A stretch of DNA of 63,717 bases, filler included, from Globobulimina sp. (lineage: Eukaryota), in assembly GCA_003354225.1 (NCBI GenBank). It is 15 parts of 15 records of this genome, joined end to end, with 100 filler letters (N's around TTAATTAATTAA, not from the genome) between each part and the next. Parts side by side here need not be neighbours in the genome. Positions count along the whole stretch, not along the records: positions 46,818 to 50,969 come from PIVH01001552.1; 14 more parts are not named here. One strand, given 5' to 3'. The number at the start of each line of letters is the position of its first letter. Position 1 is the first letter of the stretch. The notes below the pieces were generated by a model. It saw only the letters and a list, made by a program, of their open reading frames with translations, did no database searches and was not told the DNA's origin. This document shows positions 5,657-63,068 of the stretch, piece by piece. Position numbers and translations under genes: made by a program.

Positions 5657-7663
5657 TTGAAAAAGAATGATAAACATCAAATTTCACAAAATAAGAAAAA
5701 TAAAGTTGTAAATGAAGCATTACAGATTTACCAACAAATCAAGGAAGAAAAAAATTATTTTGTGATCAATACAATGTTAAAATTATTGTATCAATTTGAA
5801 AAACCAGAAAAAATATTGTCATTATGGAAGGATATTAAACTGCTACGAGAACAGCAAAATTGTGACATATCGTTTCCATTATTGATGAAATGTTGCATTA
5901 AAGCCGATAACATAAATATTTGTGAATGCGTAGAAATATTAGAATGGATAAAAGAATGTAATTATAAGTTACGATTACATGGATATTTCATAAATAAACT
6001 TATAGGTAAAACAATTGCAAATAATAATTTGCATAATTTACAATATATTCACGCTCTGATTTACAATGATAAAATAATTGAAGACAACAATGATATTATA
6101 ACCAAAACAGTTTTAATTAATGCTTATTCAGCCTGTAAAAGCCCGGAAGATATATTAAAAATATTTGATTCCATCAATGATAAAGATATTGTTCTGATCG
6201 GTGCTGTGATGAATGGGTTAATAAATAATAAATGGTATACACAATCACTTGAAATATATGATAAATATTATTCATTAAACAATGAAATAACCCACATTTT
6301 AGCCGTTAAAGCTTGTGCAAAATGTATGTTAACAGAGAAAGGTTTAAATATTATTAATAACAAAATAAATATAAATAAATTATCAGTGCAGAATAAAAAT
6401 ATATTGATTGGTTTTTATGCAAAATGCGGCGATATTTATAATATGGTCGATATGTTTAATTGTATCAAATTGAATGGCGAAAAATATGACATTTATACAA
6501 TAAATGCAATGATGAAAGGATATCTGGATAATAATAAAAATGAAGACGTGTTGCAATTGTATGACAATATTCCAATTACTTTGAGCAAAGATTCAGTTTC
6601 TTTTTTATTGGTTATTACAGCATGCAATAAATTGAATGATTTGCGGAAAGGACAGGAAATTCATAATATATTAAATATAAACAAAACAAATAAGAATTTT
6701 GATATATCATTGGAGCATAACAATGCATTGATTGAATTTTATGGAAAGTGTTCGCAAATAAAAGAGGCTGAAAATGTTTTTGCTTCAATTAAGGATTCGG
6801 AGAAAGACATTGTGACAATAAGTAGTATGATGAATGTGTATTGTAATAATAAGTTAAATTACCAATCAGTTGAAATATTCAATAATTTAAACAGTGAGAG
6901 ATTTAAGCATATTGAGGCAGATATTGTTTGCCACGCAATTGCGTTGAAAGCATGTTGTAATGGGGATTTGTTTGATTTTGGTATGGATATTTTTGCAAAT
7001 TTGGAAATGGATAAAAATAAAAAGTGGATGTTAAGTCATATTGATTTACAAATGCCATTAATTACATTGTTTGGCAAAAATGGCGTTATTCAACAGTGTG
7101 AAGTGATATTTAATGATATTAAAAAACATAAATATAATGAATATAAAACAGAGATAAATATATGGAATGCTATGATTATCGCATATATAAAGAACGGTAA
7201 TATTGACAAAGCAAAGGAATTGTATTTTGATATGAAAACAGAAACGGAATTAAAGGGGGATATATTTACATTCTCTGCGTTATTGAGTGGGTATAGCCAT
7301 TGTGGACAAGTGAATGAAGCGTATAATATTTGGGAGAATGAGATTGAGGGTGAATGTATGAGATATAATAAAATTGTCATCTCGGCATTGGTGGATGGGT
7401 TGTCACGAAGTGGTGAATTGTCGGAAGCTTTTCAACTGATTGAAAAATATGAAAAGTATGGAGACAATCAAACATATCATGTGATGTGGAATGCATTGTT
7501 AAATGGAGCTGTTATGCATAAAGATACATTGGTGAATAATATTTATGATGAATATGAACATCGGTTCGGAGATGACCAAATATTGATGGACTCCGCATCG
7601 AAATTGTATGCAAAAAATGTTCATTCATTACAGAAAGATAAATTGGAAACAGTAGTAAAATAA
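5657..7663 (+). CDS. PLS-class pentatricopeptide repeat protein ending in an E1-like motif, no DYW domain
   Basis: Alternating S-like (LIGFYAKCGD, NALIEFYGKC), P-like (WNAMIIAYIKNG) and L-like (SFLLVITAC) motifs; terminal TFSALLSGYSHCG, ALVDGLSRSG, VMWNALL. The frame is open upstream to about 5558, so the true start is probably in an upstream exon. Confidence 0.92.
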   Translation: MKKNDKHQISQNKKNKVVNEALQIYQQIKEEKNYFVINTMLKLLYQFEKPEKILSLWKDIKLLREQQNCDISFPLLMKCCIKADNINICECVEILEWIKECNYKLRLHGYFINKLIGKTIANNNLHNLQYIHALIYNDKIIEDNNDIITKTVLINAYSACKSPEDILKIFDSINDKDIVLIGAVMNGLINNKWYTQSLEIYDKYYSLNNEITHILAVKACAKCMLTEKGLNIINNKININKLSVQNKNILIGFYAKCGDIYNMVDMFNCIKLNGEKYDIYTINAMMKGYLDNNKNEDVLQLYDNIPITLSKDSVSFLLVITACNKLNDLRKGQEIHNILNINKTNKNFDISLEHNNALIEFYGKCSQIKEAENVFASIKDSEKDIVTISSMMNVYCNNKLNYQSVEIFNNLNSERFKHIEADIVCHAIALKACCNGDLFDFGMDIFANLEMDKNKKWMLSHIDLQMPLITLFGKNGVIQQCEVIFNDIKKHKYNEYKTEINIWNAMIIAYIKNGNIDKAKELYFDMKTETELKGDIFTFSALLSGYSHCGQVNEAYNIWENEIEGECMRYNKIVISALVDGLSRSGELSEAFQLIEKYEKYGDNQTYHVMWNALLNGAVMHKDTLVNNIYDEYEHRFGDDQILMDSASKLYAKNVHSLQKDKLETVVK

Positions 7664-42464: not shown

Positions 42465-42564
42465 NNNNNNNNNNNNNNNNNNNNNNNNNNNNNNNNNNNN
42501 NNNNNNNNTTAATTAATTAANNNNNNNNNNNNNNNNNNNNNNNNNNNNNNNNNNNNNNNNNNNN

Positions 42565-45500
42565 ATGGATTTCTGTATTGTATTCACAGTCTGGTTTAAT
42601 AAATGAATTTAATATTTGTACATTATTATTGATTCGTTGATTGTGATTTTGTTTACATTTACTGATAATTTGATCCAACTGATATTGAATCGTTGTGGAT
42701 TGATTGGTATTGTGATTGCGAGGGGCTATGGGTAATAATTCATCGGATTTACTGTATCTAAATAATGATTCAACGATAGAAATATCACATTTTAAAGCGG
42801 AAACTTTTGTAGCTGCATTAAATAATTGAGGTGTTCGCAGACCACATCCACCACGCTTCATAGTGATAGGTAGTTGAATATTAAGTGTCGGATTGTATGT
42901 TAGTAAGTTAGTAATTGACTTATTTATAAATGTATATATAAACTGTATCTGATCAATCCAGCGATCAATTTTGCGGGTATTCTTCAGGTGATATATGATT
43001 TTATTATAATTAAAAAATCGATTATAAATCAAAAATTTAATTTGCGTATCATTAATCATTTCTATATTCATTATTTTATGCTGTAATTGGATAAAATACT
43101 TATCCATTTTATCAATAATAAATTGATCAACGCCGTGGGCAACGCCAAGAAACTGGATATTGCCCTCAAAATTGAGCTTATATTCACCAAAATGCGTTTT
43201 TAAGTATGAGATAATTTCTGTATTTTGTGTGTTTGTGATTATGTGTGTTTTATCTCTATTTAATTCTATATCCCATTGCGCATATTCATCTTCTAATATT
43301 TCAAAATATGGTTTTAAAAAAGTAAAGTTAAGGCACATCAGGCCATCATCAACATAGTCAGATTGGAAATGTATATCAAAAGCCGGCTGTATAGCAATCA
43401 TACGCTTTTCAGTGTTTGTCAAAATTTGAGTTTTTCCAGCACAGTATAAAAACATTGAGGACCATAAGCCTTGGATAGTACCGGAGGTCATTTCAATGTG
43501 ATGATTCCAATCAAAATCAATGCCATTGTCATGGCCATATAAGAATTTATAGTAATTGACCAAATCAGGTATCTTTTCACAGCATAAATCATACTGTTTC
43601 TGCCGACTGACTGAGTTGAAAGCGTTTTTTGCATCACTATTTATCATGACCTCACCCTGCAATTCAGTTAATAGTTGCAAGGCCATATCGGTTGATATCG
43701 TGCCAATCTCGCAGCAGTCTTTAATACCAATTAACTGATACGGTCCCATTATCTGACGCTGTGTATTGGTGGGTATATTGTGCATTATTACACTATCAAT
43801 TAAGCGCATTATAGAGGGAAGGATATTGATGGGGCGAATGTCATAATCTGGTATATCATATTTCGCCTTTCCTAATGGTATCCCGCGGCCATATGTCAAG
43901 AAACGCGCAACCTCAAATGGCAGCCCATTGGTAACCAATTCTTTACATAACTGATGCACCATATCGGCAAAGCAATATTTTGCCTCATTATCAGCTAAAT
44001 ATACCAATAATTTGTTGTCCATACCAAATTTTCCCGGCGCACTTTTAGTATTTAGATTCATTATAATTTGAGTTATTGATTTTACTTTTAGGCGAAAAAC
44101 ATTTTTTGGTTCGTTTTGAAGATATGTGATTGGCGATTTTTGTGGATATTTGGATTGGAGTTTGGCATAATTACCATTAATATTTAAGTCCGCAATAATA
44201 CAGTCATTCAAAGCTCTGTCTGCTTTTTTAATATATCCTTGTTTCGCATATTTGAGACATTGCTTGGATCTGCGGATGATTTCATCTTTTTTATCATAAT
44301 TGCCATATTTTATTATATCAATATTATTATTTAAATGATCTAAGTTAATATCGCCAGTTATTGAATGTATGATATTTTTATAGTTAATAAAATTGAGAGC
44401 GGCGTTATTTGATTGGTTCATATCACTGTTATGAGTGGAATTGGCATTTTGATTGGATGTATTTGGTATATTTTGATTGTTTGTGTTGATCAAGTTATTT
44501 TTTCCATATTTCTCTTTAACTTTTCTATCCTTTTTGCGGTTTCTTTTATTCTGTTCATACTCAATTCTGCTGACCAATGCCCCCCATTTTTTGGATCTAT
44601 ATAGATTTTCGCGAATCGAGATTTCTTTCTTTTTAGCAGCTGTATCAACAGATCTATTGGTAAGGAAATGATAGGTCGGTGCATATAAAGCTAATTCAAC
44701 ACATGCGTCAATCGCAGCAGCTTTATTTTTGTTTGCATATCGAATTTTGGTTAGTGCATTGATAATGATCCTGCCAACTCTGTCTTTTTGCTCATCACTG
44801 TACAGATTGACATTGGTATCCCAGTATCTAAGCGCCAGCCGGGAGTCAAACTCCTCATTATTACCATCTAAGATAACAAAATCTGAGATGATATCATTAT
44901 TATGCAAGATATCACTATGGATATCATTATCGGGATTATTATGCAAAAAATCAGCATGCTGTTGTTGCAAATCAAACTCATATTTATGCAGCTCACACAG
45001 TGTATTATTCAAACCAATTAATGTGTGGCAGGATTCCTGGTCACAATATTTGCGAGCGGTGGCAATCAGATACTGCTCATTGGGATGTTTATCATTATGA
45101 TTTCTCCAATGTTTGTATGCACCTTTGCCCCAATACTCATCTTTATGTTTATGGCAGTTTGTAACGCAGCCTTTAAATACAATGGTATATTCGCGTTTGA
45201 GTGTTTGCTGTGTGGTTTTATTTTTCCCCGTCCACTTTTCCTTCCCTGTCTGTGTACAAGATTGGCATATGTACTGTGTGATATATTTGCTTATGCCGGG
45301 ATTTAATAGGTAGTTATAGCCAGACTGCTCTTTAATATGTTCAACACAATGACATTTTGCGCACGTCCAACTGGATCGAATTTGCCAATCCAAATTTGTT
45401 TCTGAATCAATTTCTTCTTTTTCGGAACTTTTGTTTTCAGAAACGTTTCTGAAAAAACTGCTGGGTGACTTTTGAGTGTCTCGAATATCAGCAACTTCAC

Positions 45501-46717
45501 TCTCCTCATCACCTCCGGTGTCGACATTTGGATCATGGGTCCGTTGTGGTAGTAGCAGCTCAGCTACAGCGGAGCCAATCGCTTCAGTCACAACCGCATC
45601 AGTCACCATCGCATCAGCCATGATAATGTCACTCGCAACCATCGGGTATATAACATTCGGCGAAATTACAGGAAATGACGGGCATTCATTCAATATATGA
45701 ATCGCGGGATTACGCAAATTCGGAGATGAATAAATATCAGTTTTATAGCCGCGGCGCGATCCAGTCGAGCCACAATTGGCCAATATATCTGCTGTAGTAT
45801 TTATGGCAATATTGCAATGACCGCCAGTCCAATATATGTGAAGTCCGAATGAGTCAAACTGGTGCAACGCTGGTTTGACCCATGCAAATAATGAGGGATG
45901 TGCTCTGATGGTCCATTTATCAGTCAACATATTAACGGACCATTGGCTATCTGAGAAGATATATATTGGCGGCTTACGATCAGTTATAAAGCGCCGCTGT
46001 AAAGGCTGAATAATATGAACTTGGCCACCTTCTCCAGCCAACCATGCCATAGCTACGCCAATGGCAAATAATTCCGCTGCATTATTACCATGCTTACCAA
46101 TGGCAGCCACAATTTGCGTGCAGCTCGAAGAGGATTTACCAGCCATTATAACAGCACCGCTACCCGCCGGGCCAGGATTGCTTTTACTTGCTCCATCCGT
46201 AGCAATCACGACGGCAAATTCAGGTATATCTGCCCATATTTTCTTAAATTCATCTCTAACTAATTGCTTTTGTTGGTGCGTTCTATTTTTGGCATTGCCA
46301 TATTTAGAACGACTATTTTTAGGTCGCATTGGAGGTGAATGGGGAGAGTTGATAGTTTGGGTCCGTGCAAGTGCGAATTCGCGCGGATTTGTAGTGGGTA
46401 AATGAGTCGAAGTGGGAGAGGAATGAGACGATGCCGTAGCAGACTGAGCGGCATCTACGGTGGCTTTCGGCTCATTATTGCCATGTAAATGAGTCGAATT
46501 GGAGGAAGAATGAGGTAATGTCGTAGTATATGTAACGGCATCTATGGTGGCCTCCGGCTCATTATTGGCACGTAAATGAGTCGAATTGGAGGAAGAATGA
46601 AGCGATGTCGTAGCATATTGAGCGGCATCTACGGTGGCTTTCGGCTCATTATTGCCATGTAAATGAGTCGAATTGGAGGAAGAATGAGGTAATGTCGTAG
46701 TATATGTAACGGCATCT
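42565..46717 (-). mobile_element. Non-LTR retrotransposon ORF (RNase H, Zn fingers, CRE-like reverse transcriptase), truncated at both ends
   Basis: RNase HI motifs TDGASKSNPGPAG, NNAAELFAI, SDSQ, GH...N..AD.LA; RT motifs SAPG, RPINI, DAKNAFNSVSR, GTIQG, YVDD, FLGV.HG, LP...GGCGL. One open frame spans the whole contig. Confidence 0.92.
46398..46717 (-). repeat. 87-bp tandem repeat (about 3.7 units, alternating A/B variants) encoding 29-aa repeats in the retroelement frame
   Basis: Units start at 46398, 46485, 46572 and 46659; no stops in the RT frame (..DAVTYTTTLPHSSSNSTHLHGNNEPKATV..). Confidence 0.92.
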
Positions 46718-47038
46718 NNNNNNNNNNNNNNNNNNNNNNNNNNNNNNNNNNNNNNNNNNNNTTAATTAATTAANNNNNNNNNNNNNNNNNNNNNNNNNNN
46801 NNNNNNNNNNNNNNNNNGCCCAGCCTCGACTGATAAAGGTAAAAATAATATAGGTTTGCCTTCGTTTCTCAGAAACAATAATCTGACGCTGAAAACCGGA
46901 TGCTCTTTAGATACACATAATCCACGAGCTGTAACATTATTAGATTTATGGGCACCTTTAAAAACAGATTTTTTCTGTTTAAACTTTAAAAGCAGATTTT
47001 TACGATAAAGTAACTTTTTTAAAATAAAAACTATTTCC

Positions 47039-48322
47039 ATGGCTTTCTTCCTCTGTATTTTGCTGGGTTTATATGCCAAAACAAGCACAACCACTCAATT
47101 ACCAAAAATGAGCATTTGGCTTCATCCAAATCCAAATTTGGTTCCTTTTATATCATCAAATCAATCGATATTCCATCAGCAAAATTGGGAAAACCTTATG
47201 GATGATTGGCAAATACGAATAAAGTCAACAAAGTCCGTGAATGAGCTGTACAGAAACATAACTGATATGTACTTCATAATTACTTCAGAATATCCGTTTG
47301 ATTTAAATTGTTTCCACGAGCAAAGTATTTCATTATTATACAGAATTGCTTTACATCATTTTTACAGTGCTCTTGGTTCTGTTTCTGACCTATCTCAAAG
47401 AGAGTGCATCACTTTAATGCATAACATGATAGACACAAACATTCAAATGGGCATTAATTTGGATGTTCATGTTTGGAACACATTTTTCGGTGTTTTTTAT
47501 TCGCTCAATAATGAATTTGGTGACACAGCTTTCTGTCAGTTATTAAAGGAAATGAAACGGAATGGAAGCAATGCCCAACCAAATATTGATACTTTTAATG
47601 TGATTTTAAATGGAATTGCTGCGAATAACGGAATTGTTAATGCTGAAAAAATGGCGTATCTAATTATAAGAAATAAAACGATGTCGCATGGAATTGAACC
47701 AAATCGAGTAAGTTTCACAATTTTAATGTCAATCTTTGCGAAAAATCAAGAGTGCATTAAAGCGACTCGTTTGTTTTTGGATCATTTCGCAACAAACAAC
47801 GCAAACAATGCATATGTTGACAGTATGTCATATTATTACAAGTTATCATTCTTTGCTGCTGATATTAATAAATTCAATGCTGTTTTCACAGATTTATTGG
47901 ATCATTATTCTCTTCATAACAATATTCAATTTGTTGTAAAATTCATGATAAAAAGCGTTATGAGACCTTACCATATTAAACCAGATAAAGATACATATTT
48001 ATTGTTGACATATCTCAGTTATCGGAATACTAAAATTCGCCATATTTTGCGCAGTATTCCACCATCTGATTCATCGGAAAATCCGTATGATCGGATTGTA
48101 TTTAGATTGCACCAAACAGCAAAGGGAAAAAACACCACTGGATATAGGAATTATATATCATTGATACCAAAATCAATGAGAGATGATAAGATGCCTCAAA
48201 CTCCGGATGCATTAAGAAAATTAAACAAAAAACCCTGTGCCTGGAGAAACCAGCTGCGTGCATGGAGAAGAAAATTGCACCAATTTGATAACTTGACTAC
48301 GATAACTGAACTGAGGAAATAA
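47039..48322 (+). CDS. PPR-repeat protein with C-terminal SLBP (histone mRNA stem-loop binding) domain
   Basis: P-type PPR motifs (DVHVWNTFF, PNIDTFNVIL, PNRVSFTILM, PDKDTY); C-terminal R..Q..KGKNT.GY.NY...IPK..R....PQTP...W..QLRAWRRKLHQFD. Confidence 0.85.
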   Translation: MAFFLCILLGLYAKTSTTTQLPKMSIWLHPNPNLVPFISSNQSIFHQQNWENLMDDWQIRIKSTKSVNELYRNITDMYFIITSEYPFDLNCFHEQSISLLYRIALHHFYSALGSVSDLSQRECITLMHNMIDTNIQMGINLDVHVWNTFFGVFYSLNNEFGDTAFCQLLKEMKRNGSNAQPNIDTFNVILNGIAANNGIVNAEKMAYLIIRNKTMSHGIEPNRVSFTILMSIFAKNQECIKATRLFLDHFATNNANNAYVDSMSYYYKLSFFAADINKFNAVFTDLLDHYSLHNNIQFVVKFMIKSVMRPYHIKPDKDTYLLLTYLSYRNTKIRHILRSIPPSDSSENPYDRIVFRLHQTAKGKNTTGYRNYISLIPKSMRDDKMPQTPDALRKLNKKPCAWRNQLRAWRRKLHQFDNLTTITELRK

Positions 48323-48360
48323 TCGATACACTGGCAGCTTGTATAAAAACGTTTTTTATC

Positions 48361-49464
48361 ATGGCAATCCGCCGCACCTTCAAACGACACACTCAACTAT
48401 TTAACAGTACGCACCATCATTATAAATCACTAACTCGTTTTTCCTCCACAAACGCGTCATCCTCGGAAATAATTTACGTAAACCCGCGCCATGCACAAGA
48501 TGGATACGAGATTGTAAACTGCAAATTTAAACCAACGATACCAGCGTTGGGCTTTGGTACTTGGGGTTGTGACCATTTCTCCTCTGAATTGATCGCAAAA
48601 TCCGTCGATATTGCACTAAAAACCGGCTATAAACACTTAGATTGTGGCCGGGTCCATGCGAATGAAAAGGAAATCGGTGCAGTTATTGCGGATCATTTGG
48701 AGTCCGGTCGTATAGACCGACAGGATTTATTTGTAACGTCCAAACTATTTAACAACGAACATGCACCGCCAGATGGCGCACCATTACGTGCATTGGAAAC
48801 GACATTAAAAGATTTGAAATTGGATTACTTGGATGCATTTCTGATAAATTGGCCGTTTAGAAATTCAATACATACTCCTCCATTAGCCTTTAATTTGGAT
48901 ACTTGGTTTTTTACTTATAAGTTATTGCACGAGTTCATGTTACAAGGCATGACGCGGAGTGTTGGAGTATGCAATTCGAGCATACATAAAATGAAAGGAT
49001 TGATCCATTTATGTGAGAAATATAAAGTATCGAAGCCTGGTATTTTGCAAATTGAATTGCATCCGTACTTGCAACAGGAAAATATATTGCAATTTTGCGA
49101 GGATGAGGACATTATTGTTACTGCTGCGATGCCGTTAGGTTCGCCAGAGAGGCCAGACCGATGTAAGCGGGATAATGATCCAATGGTTTTGGAGGATGGT
49201 GTATTGAAAGCGATTGCAAATGAAATTGGACACTCTGTGGCTCAGATTATAATCAGATGGCATTTGCAAAAAGGCGTGGTTTGTATTCCAAAAGCAACCG
49301 AAGAATGGATGATTGTGGAAAACTTTGAGAGTTTGAATTTTCGATTGAGTCAGGAACACATGGAGAGGATAAATGCATTGGATAAGCATTATAGGTTTGA
49401 GAGAGGTGAAGTGTTTCGGTGGAAAGAAAATCAAGCTTGGCAGGAATTGTTTGATAACGAATGA
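48361..49464 (+). CDS. Aldo-keto reductase family protein with mitochondrial-presequence-like N-terminus
   Basis: IPALGFGTW, GYKHLDC, LFVTSKL, LKLDYLD, QIELHPYLQQ, AQIIIRWHLQKG..CIPK. Confidence 0.92.
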   Translation: MAIRRTFKRHTQLFNSTHHHYKSLTRFSSTNASSSEIIYVNPRHAQDGYEIVNCKFKPTIPALGFGTWGCDHFSSELIAKSVDIALKTGYKHLDCGRVHANEKEIGAVIADHLESGRIDRQDLFVTSKLFNNEHAPPDGAPLRALETTLKDLKLDYLDAFLINWPFRNSIHTPPLAFNLDTWFFTYKLLHEFMLQGMTRSVGVCNSSIHKMKGLIHLCEKYKVSKPGILQIELHPYLQQENILQFCEDEDIIVTAAMPLGSPERPDRCKRDNDPMVLEDGVLKAIANEIGHSVAQIIIRWHLQKGVVCIPKATEEWMIVENFESLNFRLSQEHMERINALDKHYRFERGEVFRWKENQAWQELFDNE

Positions 49465-49617: not shown

Positions 49618-50583
49618 ATGGCAGTTAATCATGAAGATGACCGTACAATATTTGATATTAAAATTGATGGGTTATGGAACAATGCAAAAAGACGTAACTT
49701 CATTGAAAGAATCGAAATTCATTTTGTATTGAAAGTAGCGAAAATAAAACAGAAAAGAATTCACATCGATATCATACTTCCTCATTGTCCAACATCACAA
49801 TTACGTAAAAAGAAATTTCTATTATTAGTGGATGATAAATTACTGAAAGAAACAAAAAATGTGATCAAGGAATATTCAAATCAATTATACGTCGAAAAAG
49901 AAAGAAAATCAAAAATTTTAATCCAGCAATATATCGAAAACATAATGGATAAGGAAAGCTTCTCTTCATTCCATTCATTGTTTGAAACTAACATTGAATG
50001 CTTATGTTTTGATTATTACTGCGATAAACAATATGAAATCGATAAAATGTGCCGGAATTCAATGAATTATTTGGGAATTGGATATAAAACGTTTGATGAT
50101 TTAAAAAAAATAAATAAAGATAGAAAAATTGTGAAACGAATGTTTAACTGTGCTGATAAAATATTTTGTTCATACAATATAATCCGTCAAATCCCGAGAT
50201 TATTGGGACCGACATTGGGCAAAATGGAGAAATTTCCGTCTGTAATCAAAGCAAATCAATATGGTAATTTGAGAGAAATATTGGATATAAATAGGCAACA
50301 AATTAGCATAAATTATAGGATAAAAAGCGACTGTAAATTCGCTACAATATCATGTTGCATTGGTGATATTAATATGGATAAAAAAGACGTGATTGATAAT
50401 ATTATGGGTATCATTTGTGGCATGTTGCAAAGTGTTAATATGAAATGGCATTTGGTTCATACAGTCAATGTGAAACGAACAATGGGTAAAAGTATTCGGA
50501 TCTACAGTCATAAAGATATTGTATCGAGATATGAGATACCAAAATTAATGAAACAATACAAAAGAAAACTAAATCAGTATTGA
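49618..50583 (+). CDS. Divergent ribosomal protein uL1 (RPL10A)-like protein
   Basis: KRRNFIE.IE...LK, LPH.P, DDLKKINKDRKIVK, IIRQIPRLLGPTLGKMEKFP, KRTMGKS; longer than canonical uL1. Confidence 0.8.
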   Translation: MAVNHEDDRTIFDIKIDGLWNNAKRRNFIERIEIHFVLKVAKIKQKRIHIDIILPHCPTSQLRKKKFLLLVDDKLLKETKNVIKEYSNQLYVEKERKSKILIQQYIENIMDKESFSSFHSLFETNIECLCFDYYCDKQYEIDKMCRNSMNYLGIGYKTFDDLKKINKDRKIVKRMFNCADKIFCSYNIIRQIPRLLGPTLGKMEKFPSVIKANQYGNLREILDINRQQISINYRIKSDCKFATISCCIGDINMDKKDVIDNIMGIICGMLQSVNMKWHLVHTVNVKRTMGKSIRIYSHKDIVSRYEIPKLMKQYKRKLNQY

Positions 50584-61077: not shown

Positions 61078-63068
61078 ATGGTAGACGTAACTGATGAAGT
61101 AGAATTAACCAAGGATCGGGTGGGTATAATTCGTTATAAAGGCCCCTTAGACGGCAAAAACGGCGTATTTTATGGTGTTGAATTAACGAAAGGCACAGGG
61201 AAACACAGCGGATTATTTAAAGGAAAAAGATATTTCATGTGTCAGAAAGGAAAAGGAGTCTTTGTGGATAAAAAACAAATATTATACAAATTAGAACCAA
61301 AAGACAAAGCCGCAGATAAAAAGAAAAAGAAAAAAAAAACCAAAAATGCAGCTGCTCGTTCATCCTCTCAAGATCTAGGAAAACGATTCAAAGTGCAACG
61401 AAAAACAGGCCCATCGCAAGAAAAAAAAGCCTCCAAAAAATCAGGCTGGAAACCTCCGTCATGGACTAAAGACGTATTGGACGACGACAGTGGTTTCTTA
61501 GAGTACCGCTCTGCGCATCGAGGCACAGTGCAAGGAAAGACCTCGTACGGCAAAGCCGGCTATCTCCCTCACGCCAAATGGAGGAAAAAAAAATATAAAC
61601 CCGAAGAATGGGCCGAATTCCAGCAAGAAATAGACGATGAAAATGCCGCCATTGAAGCTGAAAGGGAGCGCATTCAATGGGAACAGGACGAATTGCAGCG
61701 AAAACAACGCGATATGGACGACAAAGAAAAGGAAGAAGCGGAGCGTAGACGCATTGCATTGGAGGAAGAAGCCGAACGGCTACGTAAATTGGAAGAGGAA
61801 AGGCAGCGGAAACAGGACGAGATTGAACGAGAACGGCGTCGTTTACGCGAACAAGAAGAGGAAATGGAGAGGAAAGCCGCGGCTGAGGAGGAGGAGCGAT
61901 TGCGGCGGTTGCAAGAAGAGGAGAGGAAAAGGAAGAAAATGTTGCGCGAACAGGAAGAGTTAGAACGGGAGAAACAGCGATTAGCAGAGATGCAGAAAGA
62001 AGCAGAGGCCAAACGACAGAAAGAAATCGAAGAAGAAATGCGACTAATCCAAGCTGAGAAAGATAAATTGCGCGCGGAAGAGGAGGAGCGAAGGCGACAA
62101 GCGGAGGAGGATGAGGATCGAAGTCAAGTTTTATAGCTTTATATGTTGCGATTTTGCGAATAGAATAAATAATTGAATATATAGGGAGACGGAAGTGGGA
62201 GAAGCAGGAAGCGGATCGATTGCGAAAACAGCGAGCGGATGAAGAGGAATTAAAGCGCAGAATGCAGGAAGAACAGGCTCGGTTGGAAGAGGAGAGAATG
62301 TTTTTAGAGCGCGAACGAGAGAGGAAACGAAAGGAAGAATTGGCGAAATTGAAGGATGAGGAGGAGAGAGCGGCACTGTTAGCGAGGCAAAAGAAAGAAG
62401 TGGAAGACCAAAAACGCAGATTGGCGAAATTAAAAGCAGAGCAAGAAGAGGAGGCTCGTCGTAAAATGGACGAAGAAGAGGCGCGAATGGCCAAATTGGA
62501 CGCCAAAAGACAAGAATTGGAGGACGCGAGAAGAGAGTTAGAGGCTGAACAGGCTCGCAAAGCAGAAGAGGAGAAAGAGAGACAACGCAAAGCCAAGGAA
62601 GATGATGATGAACGAAAGAGGCAATTCGAGCAAGAGATGGACGATTTGCGCGCACAGTTAGCCGACGAAGAGGCGGCCCGACGCGCAGAGCTAGAAAAGG
62701 AGCAACAAGGTTTAGATGATGAATTGCAGAAATTGCGAGGTATACTGCATGCATTTATACATGTATTAATTGTATACTGTATATTCTAAAATGATACAGA
62801 TTTACGTAAACAAATGCAGGATGAACAGGAGCGGTTAAAACGGCAACGAGAAGATGATGAAAAGGCGCGTCGTGACGCTGAGAGAGATTTGGAGGATAAG
62901 AAACAAAAAGAATTGGATCGATTGAAGCGTTTGGCCGATGCAGAAAAGGAACGGCAACGGCAAGAAGATGAAGACCGACGGCGTCAATTAGAAGATGAGC
63001 GACGGAGATTGGAGGCAGATCGACAGAAAATGCAGGATGAGTTGGATCGAAAACGTGCAGAGGATGAA
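61078..63068 (+). CDS. CAP-Gly domain protein with long E/R/K-rich helical tail, cut by a chimeric junction
   Basis: GIIRYKG...GVEL...GKHSGLFKGKRYF.C..GKGVFV; introns 62123-62184 and 62740-62799. Confidence 0.9.

Follow-up and report, generated by a model that had tools for sequence, protein, structure and literature searches.

Architecture of the PPR–SLBP protein

The 63,717-nucleotide stretch of Globobulimina sp. DNA analysed here (assembly GCA_003354225.1; hereafter the window) carries at positions 47039–48322, on the forward strand, a gene for a 427-residue protein in which a pentatricopeptide repeat (PPR) solenoid is joined to the RNA-binding domain of the histone stem-loop-binding protein (SLBP). 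The open reading frame (ORF) runs from ATG to TAA without interruption and requires no intron. The frame is open from 47009, with an in-frame stop immediately upstream, so that an upstream extension of the ORF is impossible without an intron. Chance alone, at the contig's base composition (34% G+C), would give the whole window about 4e-11 open frames of 437 codons. The ORF is a real gene with one exon, from a eukaryote that is AT-rich and poor in introns.

Both modules are recognized by Pfam models above their cut-offs. SLBP_RNA_bind (PF15247) matches residues 352–418 over profile positions 5–70 of 70, with E 3.5e-17 and 62.6 bits (cut-off 27). The repeats pass the cut-offs of PPR_2 (E 5.3e-9, 36.5 bits, cut-off 30) and PPR_3 (E 4.7e-7, 30.2 bits, cut-off 25); the PPR_1 and PPR models stay under theirs in this protein. 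A preliminary description, drawn up from the sequence alone, had proposed PPR motifs followed by an SLBP domain, and both assignments hold. The motif string on which it based the second one, GKNT..Y..Y..P..R..P.TP..W..W..LH.FD, is present, and the PPR-type repeats at 47465–48052 (residues 143–338) and the SLBP domain at 48083–48292 (residues 349–418) fit the positions that it gave. Searches against the sequences of solved structures return a designer PPR protein (6een_C, 2.1e-15) and maize PPR10 (8.4e-9) for the repeats and, with the C-terminal 92 residues as query, Drosophila SLBP (4tux_A, 1.1e-7) for the C-terminal domain, which also matches human SLBP (4l8r_C, 1.6e-6).

An AlphaFold model built from an alignment of 60 relatives has a predicted local distance difference test score (pLDDT) of 89.0 and a predicted template modelling score (pTM) of 0.80; it supersedes a single-sequence model that was unusable (pLDDT 45). 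The model was compared with 48,161 representative chains using VIA-align. Residues 345–418 superpose on human SLBP (4qoz_C, residues 127–199) with Z 10.2 and 2.6 Å root-mean-square deviation (rmsd) over 71 of 73 residues, and the fly protein (4tuw_A) is matched with Z 9.6 and 2.0 Å over 67 of 71 residues. The solenoid matches the PPR domain of PRORP1 (6lvr_A, Z 9.9, 189 residues), PPR10 (4m57_A, Z 9.2, 212 residues) and a synthetic PPR protein (4ozs_A, Z 8.9, 164 residues), and the top row of the comparison is a designed helical repeat (Z 11.3). Such Z values can be generic for helical repeats, and it is therefore the combination of sequence and fold that carries the PPR assignment. Low TM-scores are usual between solenoids of differing curvature. 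In a Foldseek search of the Protein Data Bank, all seven matches at E ≤ 1e-3 are PPR proteins, with TM-scores of 0.22–0.32.

The protein consists of a hydrophobic N-terminus, a solenoid of two capping hairpins and about 4.5 PPR-type repeats, a 10-residue linker and the SLBP domain, all encoded on the forward strand. The N-terminus (47039–47086, residues 1–16) is modelled as a helix and, by a hydrophobicity heuristic only, resembles a signal peptide; a linker modelled with low confidence follows (residues 17–39). Two degenerate helix-hairpins (47156–47449, residues 40–137, with helices at 40–62, 67–84, 91–110 and 120–137) cap the N-terminal end of the solenoid. These hairpins are specific to the family described below and have no Pfam PPR match; the hidden Markov model (HMM) of the family core spans residues 92–332.

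The repeats proper begin with repeat 1 (47465–47584, residues 143–182), which has Asn147 at position 5 and Asn182 at its last position, and repeat 2 (47585–47704, residues 183–222), with Asn187 and Asn222 in the same places. Repeat 3 (47705–47806, residues 223–256) has Thr227 at position 5 and is where the PPR_1 and PPR matches under cut-off fall. An extra helix (47807–47863, residues 257–275), largely an insertion peculiar to this protein relative to other fusions, separates it from PPR-like repeat 4 (47864–47986, residues 276–316), with Asn280 at position 5 and Asp316 at the last position. A terminal half-repeat (47987–48052, residues 317–338, helices 317–329 and 331–338) runs into the Ser/Pro-rich linker between solenoid and SLBP domain (48053–48082, residues 339–348), a 10-residue block with a mean confidence of 69. 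The SLBP-type RNA-binding domain (48083–48292, residues 349–418) is complete, with helices at 349–364, 367–375 and 400–414.

The four repeats are 40, 40, 34 and 41 residues long, next to a PPR period of 35 residues. Their codes read N/N, N/N, T/unclear and N/D. Asn at position 5 of a PPR has been reported to favour pyrimidines, ND specifying U and NN U or C alike (PMC4837458). Repeats 1, 2 and 4 appear to carry such a pyrimidine-type code, through which they may contact RNA. Counted over 40 rows of the family, the hallmark positions are conserved. In repeat 1, Trp at position 4 is invariant (36/36), and Pro ahead of the last position is present in 37 of 38 rows; Thr-Phe at positions 3–4 of repeat 2 is found in 32/38 and 36/38. 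Asn occupies position 5 in 22/36 rows for repeat 1, 18/38 for repeat 2 and 24/34 for repeat 4, and the last position is Asp or Asn in 33/38, 25/35 and 22/26, respectively.

The fusion is continuous and recurs in a foraminiferal family

Public runs of two other studies yield contigs that span the junction between the PPR and SLBP modules. A 1511-nt contig of X1 covers 47026–48536 with seven differences, and a contig of X2, from a study different from that of X1, covers 47687–48698. The run type of X1 and X2 is not on record, and these contigs establish continuity of sequence, which is not proof of a single transcript. No run recorded as RNA contains the locus. Contigs of X6 and X8, which are only guessed to be RNA, carry parts of the ORF at about 95–97% likeness, and none of them bridges 48022–48091. 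The early claim that one continuous 427-residue ORF carries both domains thus gains support at the DNA level from the bridging contigs, and the fusion is not an assembly artefact.

The competing explanation, in which two separate genes were merged by chimeric assembly or by a faulty gene model, draws on the highly fragmented state of the assembly, the window being a chain of contigs of about 4 kb, and on the absence of the locus from recorded RNA runs. However, the contigs of the two other studies cross the junction unbroken, and neither a stop codon nor a frame change lies between the modules. The same architecture is found in nine independent database proteins, two of them from Nonionella stella, and the alignments of other fusions run through the linker. 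An artefact is therefore extremely improbable and already close to refuted.

These relatives come from a HMMER scan of 1.84 billion representative proteins, which gave 1021 hits at E ≤ 1e-3, the best 150 of which were listed. The query and the best 150 of the 1021 hits, 151 sequences in all, were then searched with a local HMM of the solenoid core and another of the SLBP domain. Both match the query and P0005, P0009, P0021, P0028, P0057, P0058 and P0133, as well as the fragments P0105 and P0137. Among the best 150 of 1021 there are thus nine further fusions, with P0006 as an additional weak case; 62 proteins have the SLBP domain only and 72 the core or a generic PPR only. The SLBP domain is present in a minority, about one-fifth, of the family members seen. 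Single-stretch phmmer alignments extend across PPR, linker and SLBP for P0009 (query residues 106–419), P0021 (96–416), P0028 (75–417) and P0133 (49–412).

The SLBP_RNA_bind cut-off of 27 bits is passed by seven of the nine other fusions: P0105 (77.5 bits), P0005 (68.2), P0137 (54.8), P0009 (44.5), P0058 (43.7), P0057 (32.3) and P0021 (27.7). P0133 (24.5) and P0028 (16.9) stay under it. None of the nine reaches a Pfam PPR cut-off, being too divergent for the PPR models, so that the architecture would stay hidden from domain databases. In P0006, a 530-residue protein from an ENA/Logan record, a solenoid core lies on either side of a degenerate SLBP-like remnant (local HMM E 7.7e-4, without a Pfam hit), a layout suggestive of tandem duplication and of decay in this family.

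A cluster look-up found 19 family proteins; five of them carry a taxon label, in every case that of a foraminifer. The label is Nonionella stella for P0133 and P0005, both fusions, and Bolivina argentea for P0002, P0052 and P0062, all with the core only. PolyA transcriptomes and metatranscriptomes of N. stella and B. argentea have been described (PMC8153729), and we infer that these are the source of the labelled proteins; in that case N. stella transcribes the fused form as a single mRNA. The 427-residue query itself is absent from the protein collection, where the best hit shares only 44% identity with it; the relatives therefore come from other organisms. The PPR–SLBP architecture is real and recurrent in foraminifers, in a diversified, fast-evolving family. 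The preliminary description was right about the fusion itself. The case is not an isolated one: the protein belongs to a divergent multigene family whose labelled members are all foraminiferal.

Other searches added no relatives. In a protein atlas, the nearest large clusters are generic PPR proteins and none joins PPR with SLBP, at scores too low to serve as evidence. Word-seeded protein searches found no match for the whole protein or for the SLBP region, and a search with the fusion alignment recovered only its own member P0133; the index misses the family, and its blanks are uninformative. Pattern scans of metagenome contigs gave 43 pattern matches for P0001 and 74 for P0005, with no relative among them.

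RNA-contact residues of the SLBP domain

Two residues of canonical SLBP are of particular interest. Arg181 is described as its sole base-specific contact, to G7 of the hairpin, and Thr171 of the TPNK motif as a phosphorylation site that raises affinity, as reported after Tan et al. (PMC10388802). In the 427-residue protein, Thr388-Pro389 (48200–48205, forward strand) corresponds to human Thr171-Pro172, the motif reading TPDA in place of TPNK. Lys398 (48230–48232, forward strand) corresponds to Arg181 in the HMMER alignment to human SLBP and is followed by a two-residue insertion, Pro-Cys.

We tallied 15 conserved SLBP positions over 64 SLBP-only domains and 10 fusion domains, the query included. 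The 427-residue protein is canonical at 14 of the 15, Thr388 among them, the exception being Lys398. This is a conservative change, also present in a few ordinary SLBP domains: among the SLBP-only domains, 58 have Arg in the Arg181 column, 5 have Lys and 1 has Glu. In the fusions the same column holds Arg in 6, Lys in 1 and another residue in 3. The Thr171 column is Thr in 64/64 SLBP-only domains, as against Thr in 5 and another residue in 5 of the 10 fusions. These columns show SLBP domains that are diverging in the family, with the 427-residue copy near-canonical.

A tree of 74 SLBP domains over 73 columns is unresolved and holds no evidence on the source of the fused domain. Fusion branches in it measure 1.6–6.4 against a median of 0.65, and the fusions need three label changes, which is compatible with a single origin.

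These observations bear on the possibility that the protein is the working SLBP of foraminifers, or one of them, binding the 3′ stem-loop in replication-dependent histone mRNAs. The PPR solenoid would then stand in for the disordered effector regions of animal SLBP, whether by offering factors of processing or translation a platform or by reading the flank. The near-canonical domain favours it, with its score of 62.6 bits, its 14 of 15 tallied positions and the Thr-Pro of TPNK kept. A 2026 preprint reports that Rhizaria have SLBP and that their stem-loops, close to the stop codon of every core histone, keep diagnostic positions (10.64898/2026.10.14.759114). Moreover, no separate canonical SLBP labelled as foraminiferal was found, in a very limited search where one of ten SLBP-only hits had a named organism (Amoeboaphelidium). 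On the other hand, several paralogues exist that are divergent, N. stella having at least two, and the fusion branches of the tree are long. The Thr of TPNK is lost in half of the fusions and in none of the SLBP-only domains, and Arg181 in 4/10 fusions, the 427-residue copy included, against 6/64 SLBP-only domains; in this copy, Lys takes the place of the G7-reading Arg. A signal-peptide-like N-terminus would, in addition, keep the protein from nucleus and cytosol. A histone SLBP is consequently unlikely. The role in histone mRNA processing that had been considered at the outset is doubtful, given several fast-evolving paralogues, the loss of the Thr in half of them and an N-terminus that would place the protein away from histone mRNA.

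The few nucleotide differences between copies were also classified. The X6 and X8 contigs show 4 synonymous and 15 non-synonymous differences, and those of X1 and X2 show 2 and 5, where 20% synonymous is expected by chance; the sample is small, and nine further differences fall outside the count. The preponderance of non-synonymous differences nevertheless speaks for relaxed or diversifying selection. Within the SLBP domain the differences are K362M, R370S, D383H and K384E, each of them at a residue, or in a loop, where ordinary SLBP domains vary as well.

Such a near-neutral pattern raises the question of whether the RNA-binding modules are relics, the solenoid serving as a protein–protein scaffold beside a decaying SLBP domain, or the copy drifting towards a pseudogene. 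Decay does occur in the family, where P0028 and P0133 have degenerate SLBP domains, P0006 keeps only a remnant and about four-fifths of the members seen are without the domain. However, the 437-codon frame would hardly stay open by chance in DNA of this composition, the canonical SLBP positions and the PPR hallmark residues are kept, and the four substitutions in the SLBP domain affect variable positions. We regard relic modules as very unlikely.

The N-terminus and possible compartment

The start of the protein was scored with a hydrophobicity heuristic only, which requires a 10-residue Kyte–Doolittle window to reach 2.2 or more somewhere in the first 35 residues. The best window of the 427-residue protein reaches 2.92, from residue 2. 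By the same heuristic, 24 of the 48 family members starting with Met have a signal-peptide-like start, compared with 2 of 63 SLBP-only proteins, and several signal-negative members look like N-terminal fragments. The hydrophobic N-terminus, suspected early on to be a targeting signal, is thus a recurrent feature of the family. Its hydrophobic core is short, with 10–12 residues, and is followed by small polar residues. We read this pattern as a probable cleavable signal peptide, as opposed to a membrane anchor or a basic presequence. Such a signal suggests that the protein may act in, or be delivered through, the endomembrane system.

The gene adjoining on the same contig offers an internal comparison. 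It encodes an aldo-keto reductase (48361–49464, forward strand, Pfam match) with a basic, Ser/Thr-rich N-terminal extension of 60 residues, the Pfam domain starting at residue 63. This extension looks like a mitochondrial presequence. The first 60 residues contain nine Lys and Arg in the reductase and three in the PPR–SLBP protein. Presequence-like N-termini therefore exist in this organism, and the PPR–SLBP N-terminus differs from them.

Most PPR proteins of non-photosynthetic eukaryotes are organellar (mitochondrial) RNA factors. The PPR–SLBP protein could likewise be a mitochondrial factor that binds a hairpin and its flank and so defines or protects a transcript end. PPR proteins are described as acting 'primarily in organelles' (PMC4837458). 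Many structural neighbours of the model are mitoribosomal or mitochondrial PPR proteins (8csp_4, 6yxx_E6, 9gyt_g and Rmd9p, 7a9x_A), and no acidic residue occurs within the first 50. Yet these structural matches reflect fold and not location. The N-terminus appears to have a short hydrophobic core at its extreme end instead of a basic amphipathic presequence, and it is poorer in Lys and Arg than that of the adjoining reductase. A mitochondrial role appears rather improbable to us.

Genomic context

The window is a pseudo-molecule of about 15 contigs of about 4.15 kb each, their size slowly falling, with 14 linkers and 28 N-runs. Each linker consists of N44, TTAATTAATTAA and N44 (window 4160–59525; for example, 46718–46817). 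Because the contigs are chained by linkers, gene neighbourhood is meaningful only within one contig. For the PPR–SLBP gene, the contig at 46818–50969 (PIVH01001552.1, 4152 bp) is the sole true genomic context.

On this contig the genes are very closely spaced: 38 bp (48323–48360) separate the PPR–SLBP stop codon from the ATG of the aldo-keto reductase gene, and one X1 contig extends across this gap. After a further 153 bp comes a gene for a Ribosomal_L1-domain protein (49618–50583, forward strand). Its Pfam match covers residues 158–290 only and is preceded by a long Lys-rich N-terminal extension. Upstream of the PPR–SLBP gene, just inside the contig, lies a high-copy repeat (46830–46908), where many contigs stop. 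Word depths summed over it come to about 11,118 for X2 and 322 for X1; over the gene they are 6 and 21. By eye, about four tandem copies of a unit of about 87 bp (46400–46717) end the preceding contig and are interrupted by the linker.

The remaining features lie on other contigs. A classical PPR protein of 629 residues (5774–7663, forward strand) scores 106 bits with Pfam PPR and 86 bits with PPR_2. The family core HMM does not detect it; the organism therefore also has ordinary PPR proteins. Pfam places an RNase H domain (E 1.1e-8) close to the N-terminus of a retroelement-like ORF of 1270 residues (42517–46329, reverse strand), which reaches into the linker. Pfam further identifies a Rad17 P-loop protein (13447–15921, reverse strand), a protein kinase fragment (17847–18800, reverse strand) and a CAP-Gly protein (61078–62136, forward strand). 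Of 19 other long ORFs of the window that were scanned, 10 have no Pfam match. A hairpin at 23789–23878 (reverse strand) resembles the Rfam family mir-2733 over the full model (40.6 bits, E 4.9e-5). This is far under the gathering score of 72.9, and the hairpin is probably a plain inverted repeat.

Proposed function

The best explanation of the architecture, which we hold to be somewhat probable and which residue conservation makes plausible, is a bipartite RNA reader, as the preliminary description had suggested. It would recognize a hairpin through its SLBP domain and the flank through its PPR tract, within a diversifying family where the hairpin read may differ from member to member. The SLBP domain would clamp the 5′ side of an RNA hairpin, as in canonical SLBP. 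The PPR tract, N-terminal to it, would read a few pyrimidine-rich single-stranded nucleotides 5′ of that hairpin. RNA is reported to bind in parallel to the PPR protein (PMC4837458); given this polarity, the position of the PPR tract N-terminal to the SLBP domain and the binding of SLBP on the 5′ side of the hairpin, the PPR tract is expected on the 5′ flank. Different paralogues may read different hairpins: the RNA-contact residues vary among them, suggesting both this and that the target is probably not, or not only, histone mRNA. Through its N-terminal signal, the protein might act in the endomembrane system or be delivered via it.

Several points weigh against such a reader. Where canonical SLBP has Arg181 for its sole base-specific contact, this protein has Lys398, and only three to four repeats have a readable code, which leaves little sequence specificity. 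Z values of 9–11 for helical repeats may be generic, the VIA-align caution applying to Z below about 13. The near-neutral differences may reflect weak constraint, or they may mean that the compared copies are paralogues or that selection is diversifying. A signal peptide, here called by a hydrophobicity heuristic only, is odd on an RNA-binding protein. As for potential targets, a six-frame search of the window found no histone gene motif, and Rfam (gathering score and E ≤ 10) returned neither a histone stem-loop nor any other relevant match in it.

A further reading takes the N-terminal signal at face value. The SLBP fold would have been freed from histone mRNA in Foraminifera and, combined with short PPR tracts and a secretory signal, would have given rise to a diversifying family of hairpin-plus-flank readers that pass via the ER to a membrane-bound compartment or leave the cell, for example for a food vacuole, for a symbiont or kleptoplast compartment, or for the exterior. 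We consider an exported family of this kind improbable and offer it as speculation. If true, it would represent a host-encoded system aimed at foreign or compartmentalized RNA, whose fast evolution mirrors changing targets.

The SLBP RNA-binding domain has been treated as a single-purpose module for histone mRNA, and a family that joins it to PPR repeats and diversifies its contact residues would show its reuse for other hairpins. For the engineering of designer PPR proteins, the family would be of interest as a natural template for reading structure and sequence together in a bipartite way. A signal-peptide-like N-terminus on an RNA-binding family, in turn, points to unexplored RNA biology in foraminifers.

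Comparison with known systems

No description of a PPR–SLBP fusion was found in the literature on pentatricopeptide proteins with SLBP, foraminifera or PF15247, partly judged by titles and the beginnings of abstracts, although the architecture lists of InterPro might contain such proteins. In the literature searched, the earlier statement that no such fusion was known to have been described therefore stands. A survey of SLBP (10.64898/2026.10.14.759114) defines homologues by PF15247, under which the 427-residue protein would count. It treats paralogues positive for the RNA-binding domain only via tree reconciliation. The terms 'PPR', 'pentatricopeptide' and 'fusion' occur 0 times in its main text; its supplementary tables may list such proteins. 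PF15247-based counts of SLBP in Rhizaria may partly be paralogues of the present kind and not histone factors.

The fused domain is close to that of canonical SLBP, as known from human (4QOZ, 4L8R) and from Drosophila dSLBP (4TUW, 4TUX). Both are three-helix domains of about 70 residues that match PF15247 above its cut-off, and the predicted model superposes on the solved structures at 2.0–2.6 Å. The motifs GKNT.GY.NY, the Thr-Pro of TPNK and WRRKLH.FD are kept in the 427-residue protein. The context of the domain is different. In canonical SLBP it lies between disordered regions, and in six of six long SLBP-only proteins scanned PF15247 is the sole Pfam domain above cut-off, whereas in the fusion it is C-terminal to a folded PPR solenoid. 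The RNA-binding domain is accordingly not the only folded domain of the 427-residue protein, in which a confident PPR solenoid precedes it. The fusion also differs by its signal-peptide-like N-terminus, by Lys in place of Arg181 and by the two-residue insertion. Canonical SLBP is a conserved single gene, in contrast to the fast-evolving family of multiple paralogues to which the fusion belongs.

With P-type PPR proteins such as maize PPR10 and the designer dPPRs, the protein shares tandem helix-hairpins, matches above the PPR_2 and PPR_3 cut-offs and both hallmark and code-type residues. It differs from them in having only about 4.5 repeats, two of which are 40 residues long rather than 35, and an N-terminus that, by the hydrophobicity heuristic, does not look like a presequence. 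The coupling of a short PPR tract to a second RNA-directed module is reminiscent of PRORP1, where PPRs are joined to a nuclease; in the present protein, the partner is the hairpin-binding domain of SLBP. Each module is known by itself; the novelty lies in joining the two, in the signal-like N-terminus and in an expansion specific to the lineage.

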